A stretch of DNA of 64,000 bases, taken from the NCBI GenBank assembly GCA_963787835.1, contig CAWBEI010000005.1, positions 128,001 to 192,000 of the forward strand, read 5' to 3'. How positions within the stretch are numbered: the stretch's first letter is position 1; each line of letters opens with the position of its first letter. This stretch comes from Ignavibacteriota bacterium (GTDB lineage: Bacteria; Bacteroidota; Ignavibacteria; Palsa-1295). Positions 4,018 to 53,028 of this stretch are shown here, one piece after another. Position numbers and translations under genes: made by a program. Below the pieces are notes generated by a model. It saw only the letters and a list, made by a program, of their open reading frames with translations. It was not told the DNA's origin and did no database searches.

Positions 4018-4104
4018 GGGCTTTAGAAACGGAGAGGTTTTACAGGTCATTCCCTTGAAAAGTGGGTGACCGATCAATTTCCGCGAAATGGTATTTTTAC
4101 TTCG

Positions 4105-4112
4105 TATCTTTG
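4105..4112 (+). promoter_or_regulatory. Bacteroidota-type -7 promoter element (TATCTTTG) upstream of the LuxR gene
   Basis: Matches TAnnTTTG consensus in the divergent intergenic region. Confidence 0.35.
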
Positions 4113-4327
4113 CAACTCTGTCGTTAATCAACTCCTCGGATCCGTAGGTGGTTGTTTAATTTGCTTCTTCCGCCCGCCTCCAGCGGTTTTGGTCTTACTC
4201 CTTAGGAAGAAAAGTATTGCGATTAATTTTTCGAGTGTGATGTGAACAAGAAACAGTGTCCCATTTGGTAAGTGCCGTGCAGAGTATTCTCTTGCATGGC
4301 TTATTCGCAATTAACTAAAAATAGGAA

Positions 4328-4690
4328 ATGAGACGTGAAAACCGAACATCGAATGCTGCCGAACGCGGAGGAAGCCGCGCGCCCGGCACTACCCCCCCCG
4401 TTAAAAAACGTCGTAACAGGCGGAAGGCGCATATTGCATGGGAGCAAGCCGATCGAGATAGCGGCGGAGTCTTAACCCACAACGCAGAAACGCTTGCAGA
4501 AAAATTCCGGAAGCTGACGCCGATGGAACTGCGCGTATGTGCAATGGTGAAAGTGTTGCTTCCAAGCTGGAAGATTGCGGAACTGCTCGGAATTGACGAG
4601 CGAACTGTGGAGAGCCACCGATTGCATGCACGCCGCAAAATGAAGATACGGTTAAGAAATCCGTTAACTTCAAGATTATTAAGGATTTAA
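4328..4690 (+). CDS. Stand-alone LuxR-type HTH transcriptional regulator
   Basis: LTPMELRVCAMV...SWKIAELLGIDERTVESHRLHARRKM LuxR C-terminal HTH; no receiver domain. Confidence 0.85.
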   Translation: MRRENRTSNAAERGGSRAPGTTPPVKKRRNRRKAHIAWEQADRDSGGVLTHNAETLAEKFRKLTPMELRVCAMVKVLLPSWKIAELLGIDERTVESHRLHARRKMKIRLRNPLTSRLLRI

Positions 4691-4743
4691 TCCCTGCCAA
4701 AAATTGCGTACTTTTTGCGTAATGGATTTTGGAAATTATGATG

Positions 4744-4751
4744 TAGTTTTG
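4744..4751 (+). promoter_or_regulatory. Putative -7 promoter element (TAGTTTTG) for the 4801-7119 genes
   Basis: TAnnTTTG match 50 nt before ATG 4801; AGGAG Shine-Dalgarno upstream of that ATG. Confidence 0.4.
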
Positions 4752-4800
4752 TACTTTATAAACGCACTCAACTTTTCATTTTTTCATAGGAGTTTAGAAC

Positions 4801-5376
4801 ATGAATCTTTCAGTAAACGGCTGGAATGCACTTACAGCAGCCCAGCCCATAGATCCGCTTTCGATCATTTCAAATTGCGTGTTTGCAGGTACCGTTGGCG
4901 CCTGGACGCGAAGTACCAGTTTCCTTCAATCCAGTTGGGGAACGAATACCATTGCCTTTACAGGGAATAACACCACGATGGTTTCGCTCGATACCACCGA
5001 TTCGACGACTGTGGTACAAGCTGCGCAGTGGGTCGTGCAAACCAAGATGGTGAATATCGGTGCAAGCATCAACCCCTCGGTGGAAAAGATCGCATTTGCC
5101 AAGGCTGGTCCATATTGGCAAAATCAGTACGAAATTGCACTTGGCGCTACAAACTGGACGAACGTGCAACTCTCCTTCCGCGATAACCTCGGTACAACCG
5201 GTCTGTTTGCGGGCGTCGCGGCAGGAGCGGTTCCAGCATTTTTCTTTGGCGGACCTTTTACGGGAAATGTGCAGCTCTATATGACATTTCCGAGGGCCGG
5301 AACGTATTCACTCGTGCTTGTGGTGGATAATGCCGGCGTCTATAGCACGTTCGAAATGGAAATAGTAGCTCTGTAA
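4801..5376 (+). CDS. Hypothetical beta-rich protein with PKD/Ig-like C-terminal strands
   Basis: Good RBS (AGGAG); FPRAGTYSLVLVV resembles the PKD F..xGTYxVxL motif; no signal peptide. Confidence 0.75.
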   Translation: MNLSVNGWNALTAAQPIDPLSIISNCVFAGTVGAWTRSTSFLQSSWGTNTIAFTGNNTTMVSLDTTDSTTVVQAAQWVVQTKMVNIGASINPSVEKIAFAKAGPYWQNQYEIALGATNWTNVQLSFRDNLGTTGLFAGVAAGAVPAFFFGGPFTGNVQLYMTFPRAGTYSLVLVVDNAGVYSTFEMEIVAL

Positions 5377-5394
5377 CTTTTTTCCGAGGCTATC

Positions 5395-7119
5395 ATGCCA
5401 ACTTACGCACCTCCGGGGCCTATGCCTCCGCCCATACCACCTCCGCCCCCCTTGCCGCCCGGCCAGAACGGGAATCCGACGATTCCTGCGATTGGGGGAT
5501 TCAATTCGCAGTCACAAACGCTGATAAGTCCACCAGCTATTACGCAATCAACGATCATTGCGACTGGAACCATTGTGGGTGGCCAAATTACTACGGCGAG
5601 CACAAATGACTCAAACCAGCCGGCTGCTACTATTCCTTCTTTGGGAACCCCGTCGCAGCAAACACCATCGGCACATCCCTGCCAAAGTGGCGGGGATTGC
5701 GGGTGTGGGGGGAAGTGTAAGGACAAGAGTTTAAAAGTTGAACCAGAGACTATTTCGAATGCGACGCGCGATTTTAAAAGCAATCCGCTTACTACAGAAG
5801 AAGTCAGAGTTATTGATGAGCTATGTGGTAATACCTTCACAGCCGGGCCAACACCCACAAAAGGTGAGATTATTACGGTTAAGCAGAGCCGAACGGAAAT
5901 GCTCGTTAGTGTGCGAAGAACTGATGACGCATCAATATCATACGAGCGAATAATTCCGCGAACATCGATAGGCTGGGATGTTGGTGGTAAGATTATTTCT
6001 TTCAATACCCCGCAACTTTCGTTTGGCTTAGCTACTTTCATAGCCTTGATGGGGCAAAGGATGATTGCCATGAGGTTAGGAATAGAGATGCGTTATGATG
6101 CCACTTTAAGGTCAATGTCATTCACACGCTCTGGGAGTCAACTTTTAGCACCACCATCAACTTCAAGTATTATCTTTCCTAATTGTGAAGGAGAGTGTGC
6201 CAAGGAGGAAACAGAATCTGGTAGCCCAACTCTCTGCATTCCCCACGATCTTGTATGCACCGTCCCGTCTTGGATAATTCCTGACGGGCAACATTTGAGC
6301 CTTTGGTGGCCACCCGTGGGTCATGTTGAGATAGATTTGTCACAATGTTGTTTACAACACGACATATCTTGGTGGTGCTCTCAAACGGCGTTTGAAGTAG
6401 CAAATGCAAATGCGAAAGTGTCATCATGTATAGCCGCCGCGTTATATGATGCTACAAATGAAGCGTGCGATAAGCTTTCATGTGGTGGGTTCTGGAGATT
6501 TTTTTGTCAATCTGCAGTAGATCTATGTAAGATAGCAGCAGCACTGACCACAGGTGTTCTTGACATTGTAGAGTGGCTTCTTGTAGACATAGGGCTCGGA
6601 GCTGCGGCGATAGCTGTGTATATGAAAGACCATTTGCAATACTTTGACTTATGTGGCTGCCATCAGAATAGTTGCCTCTGTGGCGGAACACAACCGACAA
6701 TTCAGTGCCCCGGATCAGGTCGAGCAGGGTCTGTATCGTATACACCTTGTGATGATATCTGCACACTCGCCCAAAAAAGTGGGGTGAATACGCCCACAGG
6801 CGGGAATGTAAATGAAGTTTGCAATCAATGTGGATGGGTATGTAACCCAGATGGAACTACCTACTTTGACTATGGTCCGAATAATTCGGATGGGTCGAAT
6901 TGCTGCCCTGACACCACCCAACAATGCACGCAGCAAACTGATGCTCCGCAGTGCACTGCGTCGTGCTTTGACTGCTCAGCGATATGTAATAGTTCGCTAC
7001 AAAGATGGCAGTATATAACAGACCCTGGAGGACAGTTACCTTGCTGCATAGGGACACCTCCAGTGCCCCAAGGGGGTGAATGGTGCTTCGGGCACCTTTT
7101 GCGCCGCTCGGCTCATTAA
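5395..7119 (+). CDS. Cys-rich protein with Pro-rich N-terminus and PLA2-like CCxxHD motif
   Basis: 574-aa ORF with GAGG RBS; about 37 Cys; CTVP...PD...DLSQCCLQHDISWWC. Confidence 0.75.
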   Translation: MPTYAPPGPMPPPIPPPPPLPPGQNGNPTIPAIGGFNSQSQTLISPPAITQSTIIATGTIVGGQITTASTNDSNQPAATIPSLGTPSQQTPSAHPCQSGGDCGCGGKCKDKSLKVEPETISNATRDFKSNPLTTEEVRVIDELCGNTFTAGPTPTKGEIITVKQSRTEMLVSVRRTDDASISYERIIPRTSIGWDVGGKIISFNTPQLSFGLATFIALMGQRMIAMRLGIEMRYDATLRSMSFTRSGSQLLAPPSTSSIIFPNCEGECAKEETESGSPTLCIPHDLVCTVPSWIIPDGQHLSLWWPPVGHVEIDLSQCCLQHDISWWCSQTAFEVANANAKVSSCIAAALYDATNEACDKLSCGGFWRFFCQSAVDLCKIAAALTTGVLDIVEWLLVDIGLGAAAIAVYMKDHLQYFDLCGCHQNSCLCGGTQPTIQCPGSGRAGSVSYTPCDDICTLAQKSGVNTPTGGNVNEVCNQCGWVCNPDGTTYFDYGPNNSDGSNCCPDTTQQCTQQTDAPQCTASCFDCSAICNSSLQRWQYITDPGGQLPCCIGTPPVPQGGEWCFGHLLRRSAH

Positions 7120-7168
7120 GTTTAATGGATATGATGTTTTCATCTATCCATAAGAGTGACCAACTTAA

Positions 7169-7855
7169 ATGAAACATTCTCAACTAATGTGGTTTTGGCT
7201 AATAATTATTTGCTCAATGCTATCCGTGGTATCGTTTCCTGGCATAGCCATATCTCAGACATTGAGTTCACATCATGTATCCGACACATCAGTTTCACGT
7301 ATTCCCTCACCATCGGACACAGTGGTTGTATCGAGGTTCCTCGGGTTTCCACTTTGGTTAATGGGCAGTTTATCAATCGACGCCGCCGAACCTAGCGGGA
7401 TTGGTGAAGACATGGATCCATGGGCATATGATTTCAAATTTGGCGCTACTTGGTATAATAGCGTCTTCATTTTTACAATGCATGGAACTCATGGATATTA
7501 TCAGGGCGATTCGTTTGAATCACATCGTTATGATTATGCGATTCTTTATGGCAATTCGGAGCGGACTTCGCTCTCATTCATATTCGCTTGTGTTGGCTTA
7601 AGTTTTGTAGATTACCGAACGCATGGGAATGTTATTCCAGGATCGGCTGAAACTCCTGATGGATACATCTACCAGGTGGTTAATGGCTCCGCTTTCGGTA
7701 TTGCAGTTATGGGCGATATCTATTTTACTCCGATTCCTTATTGGGGTTTAGTAGGAATAGGCGTATATGGCAACGTATCAAAGAACGAGAGCTATTTTTC
7801 TCTTGATTTCACTTTTCCTCTTGAGTTCAATATACCAGTCTGGTTTGTTAAATAA
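7169..7855 (+). CDS. Hypothetical exported protein, probable small outer-membrane beta-barrel
   Basis: Signal peptide, alternating aromatic/Gly beta-strand pattern. Confidence 0.65.
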   Translation: MKHSQLMWFWLIIICSMLSVVSFPGIAISQTLSSHHVSDTSVSRIPSPSDTVVVSRFLGFPLWLMGSLSIDAAEPSGIGEDMDPWAYDFKFGATWYNSVFIFTMHGTHGYYQGDSFESHRYDYAILYGNSERTSLSFIFACVGLSFVDYRTHGNVIPGSAETPDGYIYQVVNGSAFGIAVMGDIYFTPIPYWGLVGIGVYGNVSKNESYFSLDFTFPLEFNIPVWFVK

Positions 7856-7936
7856 TTCTAATTGGTTATTAATGTGTGCAACTTAAAGTGAATTATAATT
7901 ATTTTCAATTTTCAAGCATTAGGTTAGAGAATGTGT

Positions 7937-8180
7937 TATATTAGGTGGTGAGATGATGGGCACCCATATCAATTTTGAGTTAAGAACTCAGAGTTAAGAA
8001 TAGGTGCTCAGTGGCTCATTGAAAATGTAAGTGATAGGTTTCATTATGAACGAGTTCTTTAGGAAGCGGCATTATGAATACTTGTTGGAACAAATGTGCG
8101 AAATTGGCTCGGAATCGAGGCTGTCGCGAGGGCCATCGGGAACTCAGCAAGAAAAAGAAATGGCACCTGTTTCTGGGGGA
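7937..8180 (+). repeat. Dispersed promoter-containing non-coding element, copy 1
   Basis: TATATT-13nt-ATGGGCACC...GCTCATTGAAAAT...ATGAACGAGTTCTTT...CGGGAACTCAGCAAGAAAAAGAAATGGCACCTGTTTCT; homologous to 20668-20869(-) and 52738-53028(+). Confidence 0.8.
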
Positions 8181-8187
8181 TAAGCAT

Positions 8188-8230
8188 GGACCACGATTTT
8201 CAGGATTTTCGGGATTCGAGAAGGATGGGG
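8188..8230 (+). repeat. GGACCACGATT..GGATTTTC.GGATT..GAAGGATGGGG module
   Basis: Reverse-complement copies at 21557-21600 and 22332-22375. Confidence 0.75.
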
Positions 8231-8262
8231 ACGAAAGAACTGAGAAAAGTAGTTATAAGGTC

Positions 8263-20667: not shown

Positions 20668-20869
20668 AGAAATAGGTGCCACTTCTTTTTCTTGTGAGTT
20701 CCCGATGATTCCTCGTTTCCAAACTGTTTTCGCCATTTGTTGCAACAAATTCTTTTCTCAAAGAACATGTTCATAACGAAAACCACCCCGACTGCCAGAT
20801 TGTCAATGAACATGACACAAAACACTATTCCCACAGACACTTGGTGCCCATAGTTTCACTACCAATATA
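20668..20869 (-). repeat. Dispersed promoter-containing non-coding element, copy 2
   Basis: Minus strand: TATATT-12nt-ATGGGCACC...GTTCATTGACAAT...ATGAACATGTTCTTTG...TTGTTGCAACAA...CGGGAACTCACAAGAAAAAGAAGTGGCACCTATTTCT. Confidence 0.8.
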
Positions 20870-21486: not shown

Positions 21487-21537
21487 ATCTAACAAAAGTA
21501 ACCAAACCCGGAAATAGTTCGGCTCACACTGTCCCCA

Positions 21538-21675
21538 CCTCTTACTTCTTACTTTTCCCCATCCTTCCATAATCCTGAAAATCCTGTGAATCGTGGACCC
21601 ATTTCATACTTCATAATTCATACTTCGTGATTTCCCCCGCCCCCGTCCGCCACAAAATTCGAAATTTTCTTCAGT
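21538..21675. repeat. Composite direct repeat left of TA pair 2
   Basis: (CTTACTT)n + CCCCATCC..AATCCTGAAAATCC..AATCGTGG + (TTCATAC/A)n + CCGCCAC.AAATTCGAAATTT; second copy at 22293-22458. Confidence 0.8.
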
Positions 21676-21704
21676 CATTCGTGGGGAACATCATAGGAGA
21701 TACT

Positions 21705-22279: not shown

Positions 22280-22292
22280 TTTTCCCCCGCAA

Positions 22293-22458
22293 CTCTTACT
22301 TCTTAACTCTTACTTCTTACTTATTACTTTTCCCCATCCTTCCCTAATCCCGAAAATCCCGCGAATCGTGGCCCCGTTTCATCTTTCATCTTTCATATTT
22401 CATATTTCATCTTTTCCCCATTCCCCCGCCCGCCACGAAATTCGAAATTTTTCTCAGC
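22293..22458. repeat. Composite direct repeat right of TA pair 2
   Basis: Same block order as 21538-21675 with expanded heptamer tracts. Confidence 0.8.
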
Positions 22459-22503
22459 CCCAGCTGGGGCACATAGCTCTAGCCGGGCGGCGTAAGCCAC
22501 CAG
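22457..22503. repeat. REP-like element (GCCCCAGCTGGGGC...TAGCC...GCGTAAGCC)
   Basis: 14-bp palindrome followed by a TAGCC/GTAAGCC segment, resembling REPs associated with IS200/IS605-type (RAYT) transposases. Confidence 0.5.
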
Positions 22504-50449: not shown

Positions 50450-52591
50450 TCATTGTAATACGATCGGGACTCGCTCCACACTTCCATTCATTCGCACAAT
50501 AGCCCAATACGCTCCCGGAGGCATGTTAGCGGCGTTCCAGGTGAAGGTATGCTCGCCGGCAGATAGCTCACCCTCGAACAGCCGCGCAACCTCCGAGCCC
50601 AGAAGATTTACAATGCTAAATTCCGCAGCGCCGCTTTCGGGTGAGGTGAAGGTAATGGTGGTAGATTGGGTGAAGGGGTTGGGGTAGCTTTGTATTTCGT
50701 TTGAAACTGTTTGTTGTTCTGTCGAAACACTTGCCGTGACCATGTTGGAAATTGCTCTTTTCCAAACACCTGTACCGTATTGAGCAGAGTTGCCACTCTG
50801 AGTTCCAACAAAAAGCGTTGCCGACGATGGATCTGTGCCGATTGCAGCGAAGGCATTCGCAAACGAGTTAGATGGCCATCCAGAAAGCTCCGAAGTCCAT
50901 TTGGAACCGGTGTCCGTCGATAACAAAACGCTGCCGTTAGCACCAGCGAATAGATTGGAGCCAAAGGCGAACAATGAAACAACCCATATATCATTGGAGA
51001 AACCATTATTCACCGTACTCCATTCTGATCCATCGTCGGTTGACAGAGAGACGCTACTGTCATCAGAACCAGCAAAAATATTATTTCCGATAACAGCAAG
51101 CGCATCGACAAAAGGACTTGCTTTCCCTGGATTAAACAAACTGGTAGCAGACCAGTTTGAGCCATTGTTCGTCGAAAGATAAACGCCCCCAGCACATCCA
51201 GCAAAAATGTTCGAGCCGCAAACGGCGAGGGCATTTACTTCAAAGCTCTGCAAACCAGAACCAGCATTCTTCCAACTTGTACCGCTATCAGATGAGAGAA
51301 AAACTCTGCCGCTCCCCGCAGCAAAAAGATTCGTTCCGTTCGATACAAGAGAGACAATCCCCGTGCCTTGTAAGCCAGTATTAGCACCGATCCAGCTCTT
51401 GCCGCTGTCAATGGAGCGAAAAAGTCCCCCGTTAGTTCCGACAAACACGGATTTTCCCATCACCGCTAATGCGTTGACATACTCACCCGATCCGGAGTTA
51501 TCAGAGATTGTTAAGCCGGAATCTGCCTCTACCCACGTTGTCCCACTATCTATTGAACGAAACATCCCGCCTCGTTGAGTACCTGCGAAAATAATTGTGC
51601 CGATCTGGGCAAGTGCGGTAATAGTAGGAGTAGGCAAACCCTTGCTCGCTGCTGTCCAGCTTTCACCATTATCTGTCGAGCGATAAACACCGTTCCCGCC
51701 AGTTCCTGCAAAGAGACTTGAACCGGTTCCGAAAAGAGAAGAAACAGAATTAGAAGTTGTAAGCCCGTTAATCGGATGGGTCCAAGTTACGCCATTGTCT
51801 GATGAAATAAGAACACCGTTCTGATTTGTTCCGGCAAAGAGTTTTCCTCCGATCATCGCAAGACTCCATATCATGGAGTCGGTCATACCGTTATAGCTAA
51901 CATTCCAACTTTCACCTCTGTCATTCGAAATGTAAACCCCGCGATCTGTTCCTGCATAGATATTATTTTCGCTCACTAGCACGGTATTGACATCGGCAAT
52001 TCTCGGTCCGTTGCTCGTAGGGTTCCAACTAGTACCGCTATCGGTGGTTAGAAAAACGCCATCGTAAGTGCCTGCAAAAACGTCCGTCCCACTCACCGCG
52101 AGAGAGGTGACGTAATTTTCCATCAAGCCGGAATCCACTTCCATCCAATTTTTGCCACTGTCTTTCGAGCGAAAAATGCCGGCACCTCCACCGTACGCCG
52201 ATACATAAAGGTCAGTGCCGCTTGCGGTAAGTGCAGTTATCTCCATGTTCTGAGGTAAACCACTACTCGCAGCCTCCCAGGTCTTACCACTATCGATAGA
52301 TAGAAAGACTCCATTGTAGAAAGTCCCGGCAAATAGATTGTTGCCAATTACAGTGAAAGCAATGATAGGGTACTCGATGCCATTATTTGACGAAGCCCAT
52401 ATTGTGCCATTGTCAGTCGAACAATACACACCATTATCAGTACCCGCAAAGAGAATTGAGCCGATTTTGGCAAAAGCTCCAACATCTCCACCATATGGCC
52501 CATTCGTCTGAACCCATTGAGCATTTGCGCTCCTGGAGTTGAAAAACGCAAAACTTAGAACTACTAAGATTACGGCAAACTTATTTTTCAT
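50450..52591 (-). CDS. Secreted BNR/Asp-box beta-propeller protein with T9SS C-terminal sorting domain
   Basis: Signal peptide to AQW; many GV..S.D.G.SW repeats; YPNPF...NLLG CTD. Confidence 0.9.
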   Translation of the reverse strand: MKNKFAVILVVLSFAFFNSRSANAQWVQTNGPYGGDVGAFAKIGSILFAGTDNGVYCSTDNGTIWASSNNGIEYPIIAFTVIGNNLFAGTFYNGVFLSIDSGKTWEAASSGLPQNMEITALTASGTDLYVSAYGGGAGIFRSKDSGKNWMEVDSGLMENYVTSLAVSGTDVFAGTYDGVFLTTDSGTSWNPTSNGPRIADVNTVLVSENNIYAGTDRGVYISNDRGESWNVSYNGMTDSMIWSLAMIGGKLFAGTNQNGVLISSDNGVTWTHPINGLTTSNSVSSLFGTGSSLFAGTGGNGVYRSTDNGESWTAASKGLPTPTITALAQIGTIIFAGTQRGGMFRSIDSGTTWVEADSGLTISDNSGSGEYVNALAVMGKSVFVGTNGGLFRSIDSGKSWIGANTGLQGTGIVSLVSNGTNLFAAGSGRVFLSSDSGTSWKNAGSGLQSFEVNALAVCGSNIFAGCAGGVYLSTNNGSNWSATSLFNPGKASPFVDALAVIGNNIFAGSDDSSVSLSTDDGSEWSTVNNGFSNDIWVVSLFAFGSNLFAGANGSVLLSTDTGSKWTSELSGWPSNSFANAFAAIGTDPSSATLFVGTQSGNSAQYGTGVWKRAISNMVTASVSTEQQTVSNEIQSYPNPFTQSTTITFTSPESGAAEFSIVNLLGSEVARLFEGELSAGEHTFTWNAANMPPGAYWAIVRMNGSVERVPIVLQ

Positions 52592-52737: not shown

Positions 52738-52766
52738 TTGACATCGTCCATTTTAGTACGTATATT
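52738..52766 (+). promoter_or_regulatory. Near-consensus sigma70 promoter TTGACA-17-TATATT
   Basis: TTGACA 52738-52743, TATATT 52761-52766; heads repeat copy 3 and points toward rpsO. Confidence 0.7.
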
Positions 52767-53028
52767 AGCATTTGCTTTGATGGGCACCTGTTTCAATTAA
52801 GAATTACGAATTAAGAATGGGGGAAATAAGTAAGAAGTAAGAGTTAAGAAGTAAGAAATGCGGAGCGTGGAGAGTTCATTGACAATTGATGCGGCGGCTT
52901 TCGGAGTGAACGAGTTCTTTGGGAAAGCAAAATGTGAATAACTTTTGCGACAAACGGCGAAAACAGCATGGATTCAAGGGTGGGCGGGAACTCAGCAAGA
53001 AAAAGAAAAAGCACCTATTTCTGGGGGA
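52761..53028 (+). repeat. Dispersed promoter-containing non-coding element, copy 3
   Basis: TATATT-13nt-ATGGGCACC, heptamer tracts, GTTCATTGACAAT, GTGAACGAGTTCTTTG, CGGGAACTCAGCAAGAAAAAGAAAAAGCACCTATTTCTGGGGGA. Confidence 0.8.

Follow-up and report, generated by a model that had tools for sequence, protein, structure and literature searches.

Between positions 4328 and 7855 of a 64,000-nt stretch of an Ignavibacteriota genome (contig CAWBEI010000005.1, positions 128,001 to 192,000; hereafter the window), four co-oriented genes on the + strand encode a LuxR-type regulator (luxR), a 191-residue protein termed the carrier (p191), a 574-residue payload (p574) and a signal-peptide protein (p228). 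The last three belong to what is apparently a real, recurring and undescribed system of Kapabacteria-like bacteria. On balance, we consider it somewhat probable that this is a polymorphic three-gene cassette in which the carrier likely binds an N-terminal leader on the payload and likely delivers the payload outside the cell without Sec, probably through lysis or vesicle release from a phase-switched subpopulation. Gene order, the pattern of payload and third-gene N-termini, payload exchange, clade-linked leaders and homopolymer tracts are all directly visible and carry this reading.

A recurrent carrier, payload and partner gene order

The cassette was compared across 90 stretches surrounding carrier matches, the window and two further loci, with downstream open reading frames (ORFs) chained to each carrier. 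Among 92 carriers examined, 9 had no ORF inside the gap limit and 83 had one downstream. By a crude hydropathy proxy rather than SignalP, the gene after the carrier lacks a hydrophobic N-terminal segment in 76 of these 83 loci, and the third gene has such a segment in 61 of 73; the median gap is 25 nt. Dropping 11 broken, payload-less or mis-chained rows left 72 cassettes, which fall into 33 payload classes. These include proteins resembling phospholipase A2 (PLA2-like, 16), PQQ-type propellers (9), HExxH proteins, an SLT lytic transglycosylase and galactose-oxidase-like proteins. Among the products of third genes are ankyrin, leucine-rich repeat (LRR) and barrel-like proteins, as well as propellers with a tail for the type IX secretion system (T9SS). 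The source genome of the window (97.9% complete, 3.57 Mb; labelled G000 where genomes, G, and loci, L, must be told apart) has four cassettes, whose payloads are one PLA2-like protein, one propeller and a pair of helical, Gly/Pro-rich proteins; both members of that pair have signal-peptide ankyrin partners.

Payload classes are interleaved on the carrier tree and PLA2-like payloads are scattered over it, so that variable domains are exchanged under a conserved part, as in polymorphic toxins. The synteny of a conserved carrier-like gene with a variable payload, which the initial annotation had proposed as a check, thus recurs across many genomes. Two traits that it had treated as central do not hold: luxR adjoins the carrier in only 5 of 83 loci (plus L116 and a frameshifted copy at L045), which rules it out as a fixed head or component, and payload Cys counts range from 0 to more than 35. 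Third genes are retained behind broken or payload-less carriers at L076, L148, L178, L180 and L185.

Three loci are unusual in themselves. L147 (G089:C1:1611000-1628000) holds three tandem carrier-payload-partner cassettes; their carriers, one of them frameshifted, are near-identical, whereas the payload bodies differ. At L180:664-1854, a deletion has created a hybrid in which a carrier's N-terminal half continues into the C-terminus of a galactose-oxidase-like payload, and the third gene is kept. The cassette of L029 (G014:C4:83000-93000) lies between two stretches that translate near-identically and resemble rRNA fragments, and it is possibly an insertion in, or a mis-assembly at, an rRNA locus.

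The carrier gene (4801-5376) is preceded by a strong Shine-Dalgarno sequence, AGGAG, 8 nt 5' of its ATG. Its family has four copies in the source genome; 20 of 41 relatives contain matches, as do 56 of 301 class genomes, the latter with up to 10 each. In a phylum sample, 6 of 401 genomes match, five of them within the class and one marginal. A metagenome scan for the locus gave one partial match. The AlphaFold model, built from a 65-row alignment, has a mean predicted local distance difference test score (pLDDT) of 93.1 and a predicted template-modelling score (pTM) of 0.87. It predicts an N-terminal subdomain (about residues 1-45) and an immunoglobulin (Ig)-like beta-sandwich into which a helical segment is inserted; the protein has no signal peptide. 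Structural alignment places residues 44-191 with Ig domains, without a standout match (best Z 5.8, root-mean-square deviation 2.9, 97 residues aligned), and p191 is accordingly predicted to be an Ig-like sandwich without a close known fold, representing an unnamed family. The fold matches listed are generic Ig sandwiches and include no capsid, Hcp or tail-tube protein. Kinship to UNC119/RhoGDI or SoxY was not trusted, the rows being weak (template-modelling score up to 0.36), and Atlas matches at a score of 0.84 are at the level of unrelated proteins. PDB profile searches were blank; p191 has no Pfam or PHROG match and only weak NCBIfam and PADLOC rows (E about 0.01). More broadly, Pfam, NCBIfam, PHROG and PADLOC return nothing usable for p191, p574 or p228, luxR alone having a family match.

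Some carrier copies are tandem and some bear an insertion of about 130 residues near residues 45-49 without a Pfam match. At L036:3374-4441 and L042:8318-9388, inserted beta-rich sequence separates the N-terminal subdomain from the Ig core in carriers of about 355 residues; a normal copy lies near each. Among 7,995 candidates, none proved to be a longer fusion protein of the carrier, although this is weak evidence.

Phase variation, discussed below, is typical of surface structures. Together with the tandem and insert-bearing copies (L036, L039, L042, L115 and L129), it is consistent with a reading that overlaps with the favoured one and differs in purpose. Here p191 would be a pilin-like subunit polymerising into a fibre or particle for display or adhesion, with the payload capping it via its disordered stalk and the third gene anchoring it to the outer membrane, as in Bacillus endospore appendages (ENA). 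An N-terminal M..CxC arm is present in 36 of 96 carriers, and CxC[GNS] clusters occur in 20 of 72 payloads against 2.5 expected from shuffles. As excerpted from its description, L-ENA likewise comprises three clustered genes, for a subunit, an anchor and a collagen-like tip, whose products are linked through Cys-bearing N-terminal connectors (PMC11362473). However, p191 is predicted to be Ig-like rather than an ENA jelly-roll, no ENA chain appears among the matches listed, and the window carrier has no Cys arm. That each payload gene comes with a single carrier gene fits 1:1 pairing, and third-gene folds (ankyrin, LRR, propeller, barrel) are too diverse for a common anchor. We therefore regard the pilin-like reading as unlikely.

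Leaders, payload core and export

The payload gene (5395-7119) starts 18 nt after p191 and encodes a Pro-rich start, 37 Cys and no signal peptide. Its first part, leader and stalk (5395..5760, residues 1 to about 122), is disordered and Pro/Gly-rich, with a CGCG cluster near residue 102 and pLDDT mostly below 50 up to residue 122 in the model. The first 60 or so residues of p574 are common to payloads of the same carrier clade. The clade of the window carrier (support 100/100) contains L070, L029 and L030 and includes propeller and other payloads with bodies unrelated to p574, yet the leaders of all three align with the window leader, those of L029 and L030 at z 6.5 and 6.6. P0054 likewise aligns to p574 over residues 1-130 only. 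In family f4, one leader motif, written after the sequences had been seen, occurs in 10 of 12 cassettes spanning 6 payload classes and is absent from 33,152 residues of payload bodies; it is also found in L210 and P0075, both outside the defining set. At L045, the DNA is 75% identical to window positions 4095-4806 and the luxR region is kept. The payload is again PLA2-like, yet the carrier is only 34% identical and the leader different, so carrier and leader have apparently been swapped together.

Across the set, leaders of different-class pairs score z above 4 in 7 of 24 pairs whose carriers are more than 70% identical, versus less than 2% of pairs below 50% identity, although some of these pairs are truncated homologues (L124/L134, L054/L062) and kin among them are not independent. 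The overall correlation of leader with carrier is weak (Spearman 0.08), and no universal leader motif was found across cassettes. Judged from sequence, leaders tend to follow carrier clade and the carrier likely binds the leader; linkage alone could also keep a leader beside its carrier.

The payload core (6208..6714, about residues 272-440) is followed by C-terminal Cys-rich repeats (6715..7119), which can be seen both in the sequence itself and in the A2 consensus. Cluster representatives include 54 further relatives of p574. Across the 53 rows of an alignment, C318, C319, H322, D323, C328 and C345 are invariant (53/53), D285 is conserved in 50 and C288 in 52. The likely PLA2-like constellation in p574 is D285-x-x-C288, C318-C319-x-x-H322-D323, W327, C328, N339 and C345. 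The CxxHD active-site motif lies on a helix (316-327), which is followed by a second (332-360) in the model. Excerpts from the literature give DACCxxHDxC as the secreted PLA2 motif (PMC6635587) and DxC[ST], CxxHxxxYxN and C as the Tox-PLA2 signature (PMC3482391). The upstream DxC[ST] is present in p574 with one extra residue (D285-L-V-C288-T). For residues 272-440, all four Atlas clusters listed are PLA2 families (PF09056/PF06951), with scores of 0.75-0.77, below the 0.9 trust line and to be taken as a language-model lead only. PF09056 yielded no reference set from 301 phylum genomes, and a fold search with whole p574 gave nothing above noise. The core probably has a PLA2-like fold; phospholipase activity is less probable than the fold.

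This core also bears on what the carrier does. Among 27 core matches in 301 genomes, 21 come after a carrier, 4 combine a signal peptide with a T9SS tail, 1 runs off a contig end and 1 is divergent from a carrier. In the Sec/T9SS-fused relative P0074, PKD and T9SS domains stand in place of the Cys-rich repeats. Because the core is found either with Sec and T9SS signals or with carrier and leader, the carrier likely serves export, and this is the best indirect sign of such a role: carrier and leader would likely replace the Sec/T9SS route. L207, L211, L212, L217 and P0074 constitute an undescribed T9SS cargo family with the PLA2-like core behind a signal peptide.

PLA2-like domains in ordinary T9SS cargo can also be read in terms of nutrition or biofilm, with phase-variable extracellular enzymes or lectins, p191 as a folding chaperone and the third gene as a co-regulated receptor or partner enzyme. 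In keeping with this, the third gene behind each of the 9 PQQ-propeller payloads is propeller-type and belongs to a single cluster, those scanned having a T9SS tail, and several third genes behind PLA2-like payloads look outer-membrane. Rapid payload exchange suits conflict better, as do SLT, HExxH and amphipathic-helix payloads, the third genes kept after payload loss, and ankyrin and LRR partners, which are listed as immunity folds in excerpts of PMC3482391. We rate the nutritional explanation as quite unlikely, somewhat below the pilin-like one.

The source genome encodes SprA and one weak C39 peptidase match (a 292-residue frame). It has no match to FlhA, secretin, VirB4, VipB, TssD, sheath, tube or VgrG, that is, none of the markers of type III, IV and VI secretion systems (T3SS, T4SS, T6SS) or of extracellular contractile injection systems (eCIS); type I, V and VII markers were not searched. 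The TssD and tube controls matched none of 14 named genomes, and the eCIS tube family is absent from 14 of 20 carrier-positive genomes. The cargo of an eCIS or T6SS was rejected as an identity for the payload, there being no injection-machine match in the source genome. Release through lysis or vesicles is probably the exit route, as reached by exclusion. A bolder version makes p191 the sole component of a new Sec-independent delivery class, which would self-assemble, read the clade-specific leader as an address, package diverse disulfide-rich effectors and be released by a homopolymer-switched subpopulation. This is doubtful, and if true, p191 would be a one-gene, reprogrammable protein export vehicle.

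The absence of a signal peptide from both carrier and payload, and the lack of a match to any known Sec-independent machine among those searched for in the source genome, would also suit an intracellular stress or anti-phage suicide module in which p191 holds the payload inactive until a trigger. Such a module is highly unlikely: there is no convincing PADLOC match, the third genes encode envelope proteins, and both the 37 Cys of the payload and the existence of T9SS-secreted relatives suggest an oxidising environment outside the cell.

The third gene, p228 (7169-7855), starts 49 nt after p574 and encodes a beta-rich protein whose hydrophobic N-terminus bears out the proposed signal peptide. 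It occupies a variable slot and is likely an outer-membrane protein, a candidate immunity protein, anchor or receptor. Three other homologues occur in 35 genomes, none adjoining a carrier, and p228 is not specific to PLA2-like payloads. Third gene and payload co-vary for some classes, and pairs number 46 with the same payload and same third gene versus 118 with the same payload and a different third gene. PLA2-like payloads are paired with many unrelated third genes, which, with the carrier-less homologues of p228, argues against strict immunity. Third genes persist after payload loss, as orphan immunity genes do. Membrane or periplasmic immunity has been described for lipid-targeting toxins (PMC12419801). 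An immunity function for p228 is tentative and rather less than probable.

Homopolymer tracts and genomic setting

The regulator (luxR, 4328-4690) is a stand-alone LuxR/GerE helix-turn-helix (HTH) protein (Pfam GerE, E 1.2e-7), likely a cassette activator and an optional part. Its codon 22 contains a C8 homopolymer (4392..4399), in frame (ON) here, in which gaining or losing one base would end the protein ahead of the HTH. In the L045 orthologue, the run is C13 and the frame is lost, and tract lengths vary between genomes (C8, C13, C14). The tract suggests phase variation of luxR and is likely a slipped-strand ON/OFF switch.

Similar tracts occur upstream of other cassettes. Of 80 carriers, 24 have a run of at least eight G or C in the 600 nt upstream, whereas 0 of 259 control windows contain one, a comparison tempered by the mostly coding nature of the controls. 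The 3.57-Mb source genome has only 21 such runs, the window's C8 included, three of which precede three of its four carriers and two more of which lie in cassette genes. In 8 of 90 loci, a G run separates a GAAC box from a GTT-like box, which may be an extracytoplasmic function (ECF) promoter; the spacer is 15-16 nt in seven of them, and the C4 paralogue has 11. Small sigma-70 region 4 or AraC genes lie upstream at other loci, and four of the sigma-like genes carry a C run near the 3' end. Homopolymers thus sit in a regulator frame or a promoter spacer, as in phase variation by simple sequence repeats.

A luxR paralogue without the C tract, 62% identical, heads different small signal-less genes (127-156 residues) at L072 (G000:C6:172644-173030), which indicates that this luxR type is a portable regulatory head. 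Further long G tracts, up to G15, lie at G000:C3:202715, C4:193845, C2:1099541 and C3:135549 and may mark more phase-variable loci.

Under the favoured reading, slippage of the C8 tract would flip luxR on or off in some cells, and LuxR would turn on the operon. p191 would then bind the p574 leader and hold or scaffold p574; the complex would be released, the Cys-rich domain oxidising outside, and the likely PLA2-like domain would attack membranes of competitors or grazers. In the weakest step, p228 would protect the cell or anchor the complex at the outer membrane.

Several further points weigh against this reading. We infer binding, export, toxicity and immunity from the patterns described. 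Tract-length variation was not seen in the window's own tract, the one low-depth contig that spans C8 being unchanged, and no lysis or export gene was seen within cassettes. The Tyr of the PLA2 motif is replaced by Trp, one position later, in 49 of 53 sequences, and at the second acidic position 29 of 45 scored sequences, p574 among them, have Asn and 16 have Asp, although excerpts of PMC6635587 describe Asn there as tolerated in plant PLA2. Pfam, PDB-profile and whole-protein fold searches of p574 list no PLA2. Several payload classes, such as the PQQ propellers and galactose-oxidase-like proteins, are not obvious toxins.

The initial annotation described the locus as more AT-rich than its flanking genes, and its GC content (47.1%) is indeed below that of the neighbouring major facilitator superfamily (MFS, 59.4%) and ankyrin (55.7%) genes, but only modestly low against the window (48.8%). 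Neither luxR (51.8%) nor p191 (50.5%) falls below the window average, and p574 (48.7%) as a whole is in line with it; low GC is confined to p228 (41.6%) and to third codon positions of p574 (0.42) and p228 (0.37). Nor is the locus an orphan, since p191 has three paralogues in the genome (78, 33 and 31% identity) and p228 has one (41%). Insertion at this site is supported: the cassette is present in 0 of 7 orthologous Rieske loci, and the slot holds other genes in G014 and about 1.4 kb between the MFS and Rieske genes in G010, so the locus is an insertion in a variable slot. Scans for sigma-70 promoters and terminators were at chance level. Low-depth soil contigs match pieces of the locus, and one crosses the p191/p574 junction with 0 differences.

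As annotated, the locus ends at a dispersed non-coding element (7896..8235, strand not given), which starts about 40 nt 3' of p228 and bounds the insertion. The element occurs at 57 loci in the genome, with a copy at most 1.4 kb from 3 of the 4 carrier cassettes, and may mark or mediate insertion sites. It is composite, with heptamer runs, and its nearness to cassettes exceeds the expectation from its density; other window copies lie near 20668-20745, 21537-21691, 22287-22474 and 52761-53028. Elsewhere in the window, a gene at 51061-52479 has repeats of about 120 nt and likely encodes a BNR-type propeller.

An insertion hotspot could in principle have gathered four unrelated orphans, given that the ankyrin-Rieske slot carries different genes in G014 and that luxR and p228 homologues occur elsewhere without a carrier. 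The recurrence of the carrier-payload-envelope order across families with short gaps, and the position of 21 of 27 PLA2-like matches behind a carrier, make this extremely unlikely for the locus as a whole; it is largely refuted for p191 and p574 and possible for p228 and luxR.

Comparison with known systems

The locus defines an unnamed protein family and a recurring gene arrangement present in about a fifth of the sampled genomes of an understudied class. Its 33 payload classes, most without a Pfam match, form a pool of candidate antimicrobial domains that includes a divergent PLA2-like family. Extracellular-type enzymes without signal peptides, in a genome with none of the tested injection machines, pose the question of exit, and the leader/carrier pairing lends itself to a simple assay. 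Likely homopolymer switches of this kind, placed in regulator genes and in promoter spacers, hint at bet-hedging by soil bacteria.

In the MafA-MafB-MafI system of Neisseria, a conserved partner gene is followed by a variable toxin and an immunity gene. The order of conserved partner, variable product and downstream gene is shared with the cassette, whereas MafA and MafB have signal peptides and the carrier and payload here do not. Effectors of T6SS and eCIS use adaptor or loading chaperones, an N-terminal loading leader and a small dedicated partner. The cassette resembles them in its signal-less cargo, N-terminal leader and small dedicated partner, but its source genome has no tube, sheath, VipB, TssD or VgrG match.

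As far as excerpts of PMC6635587 and PMC3482391 go, p574 shares with secreted PLA2 and Tox-PLA2 the CCxxHD helix, the antiparallel helix that follows, a Cys six residues past the second catalytic position and an upstream D..C[ST]. It differs in that Trp stands for Tyr and the YGKYCG loop is missing, in its additional hydrophobic helices and Cys repeats, and in giving no profile or fold match. L-ENA, as excerpted in PMC11362473, parallels the cassette in its three genes, beta-sandwich subunit, Cys-bearing N-terminal arms and tip with a Gly/Pro stalk and C-terminal domain. The cassette departs from it in having a predicted Ig-like subunit (fold matches Ig-like, Z up to 5.8, and no Pfam match of p191 to the DUF3992 jelly-roll), a diderm, non-spore-forming host and enzymatic, highly variable payloads.

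Searches for Kapabacteria with polymorphic or secretion-system toxins found no description of the cassette, and the combination of Bacteroidota polymorphic toxin, no signal peptide, phase variation and chaperone gave no literature match. For Ignavibacteria polymorphic toxins, the main text of the Lipocone paper (PMC12419801) does not contain this cassette; its supplements and those of PMC3482391 could list members.

Polymorphic toxins, as excerpted from Zhang et al. 2012 (PMC3482391), share with the cassette a variable C-terminal activity on a common N-terminal trafficking part, a downstream partner gene, a Tox-PLA2-like motif, ankyrin and LRR partners, and orphan partner genes. Here, unlike there, the conserved part is a separate small gene, the export signatures tabulated in that paper do not fit, and some payloads are not obvious toxins. 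RHS, PAAR, WXG or TPS domains were not recognised in the payload, which has only a short disordered leader. Although no known export route was recognised for it, the payload having no signal and the genome no machine among those searched, the cassette would probably work like a polymorphic toxin cassette.

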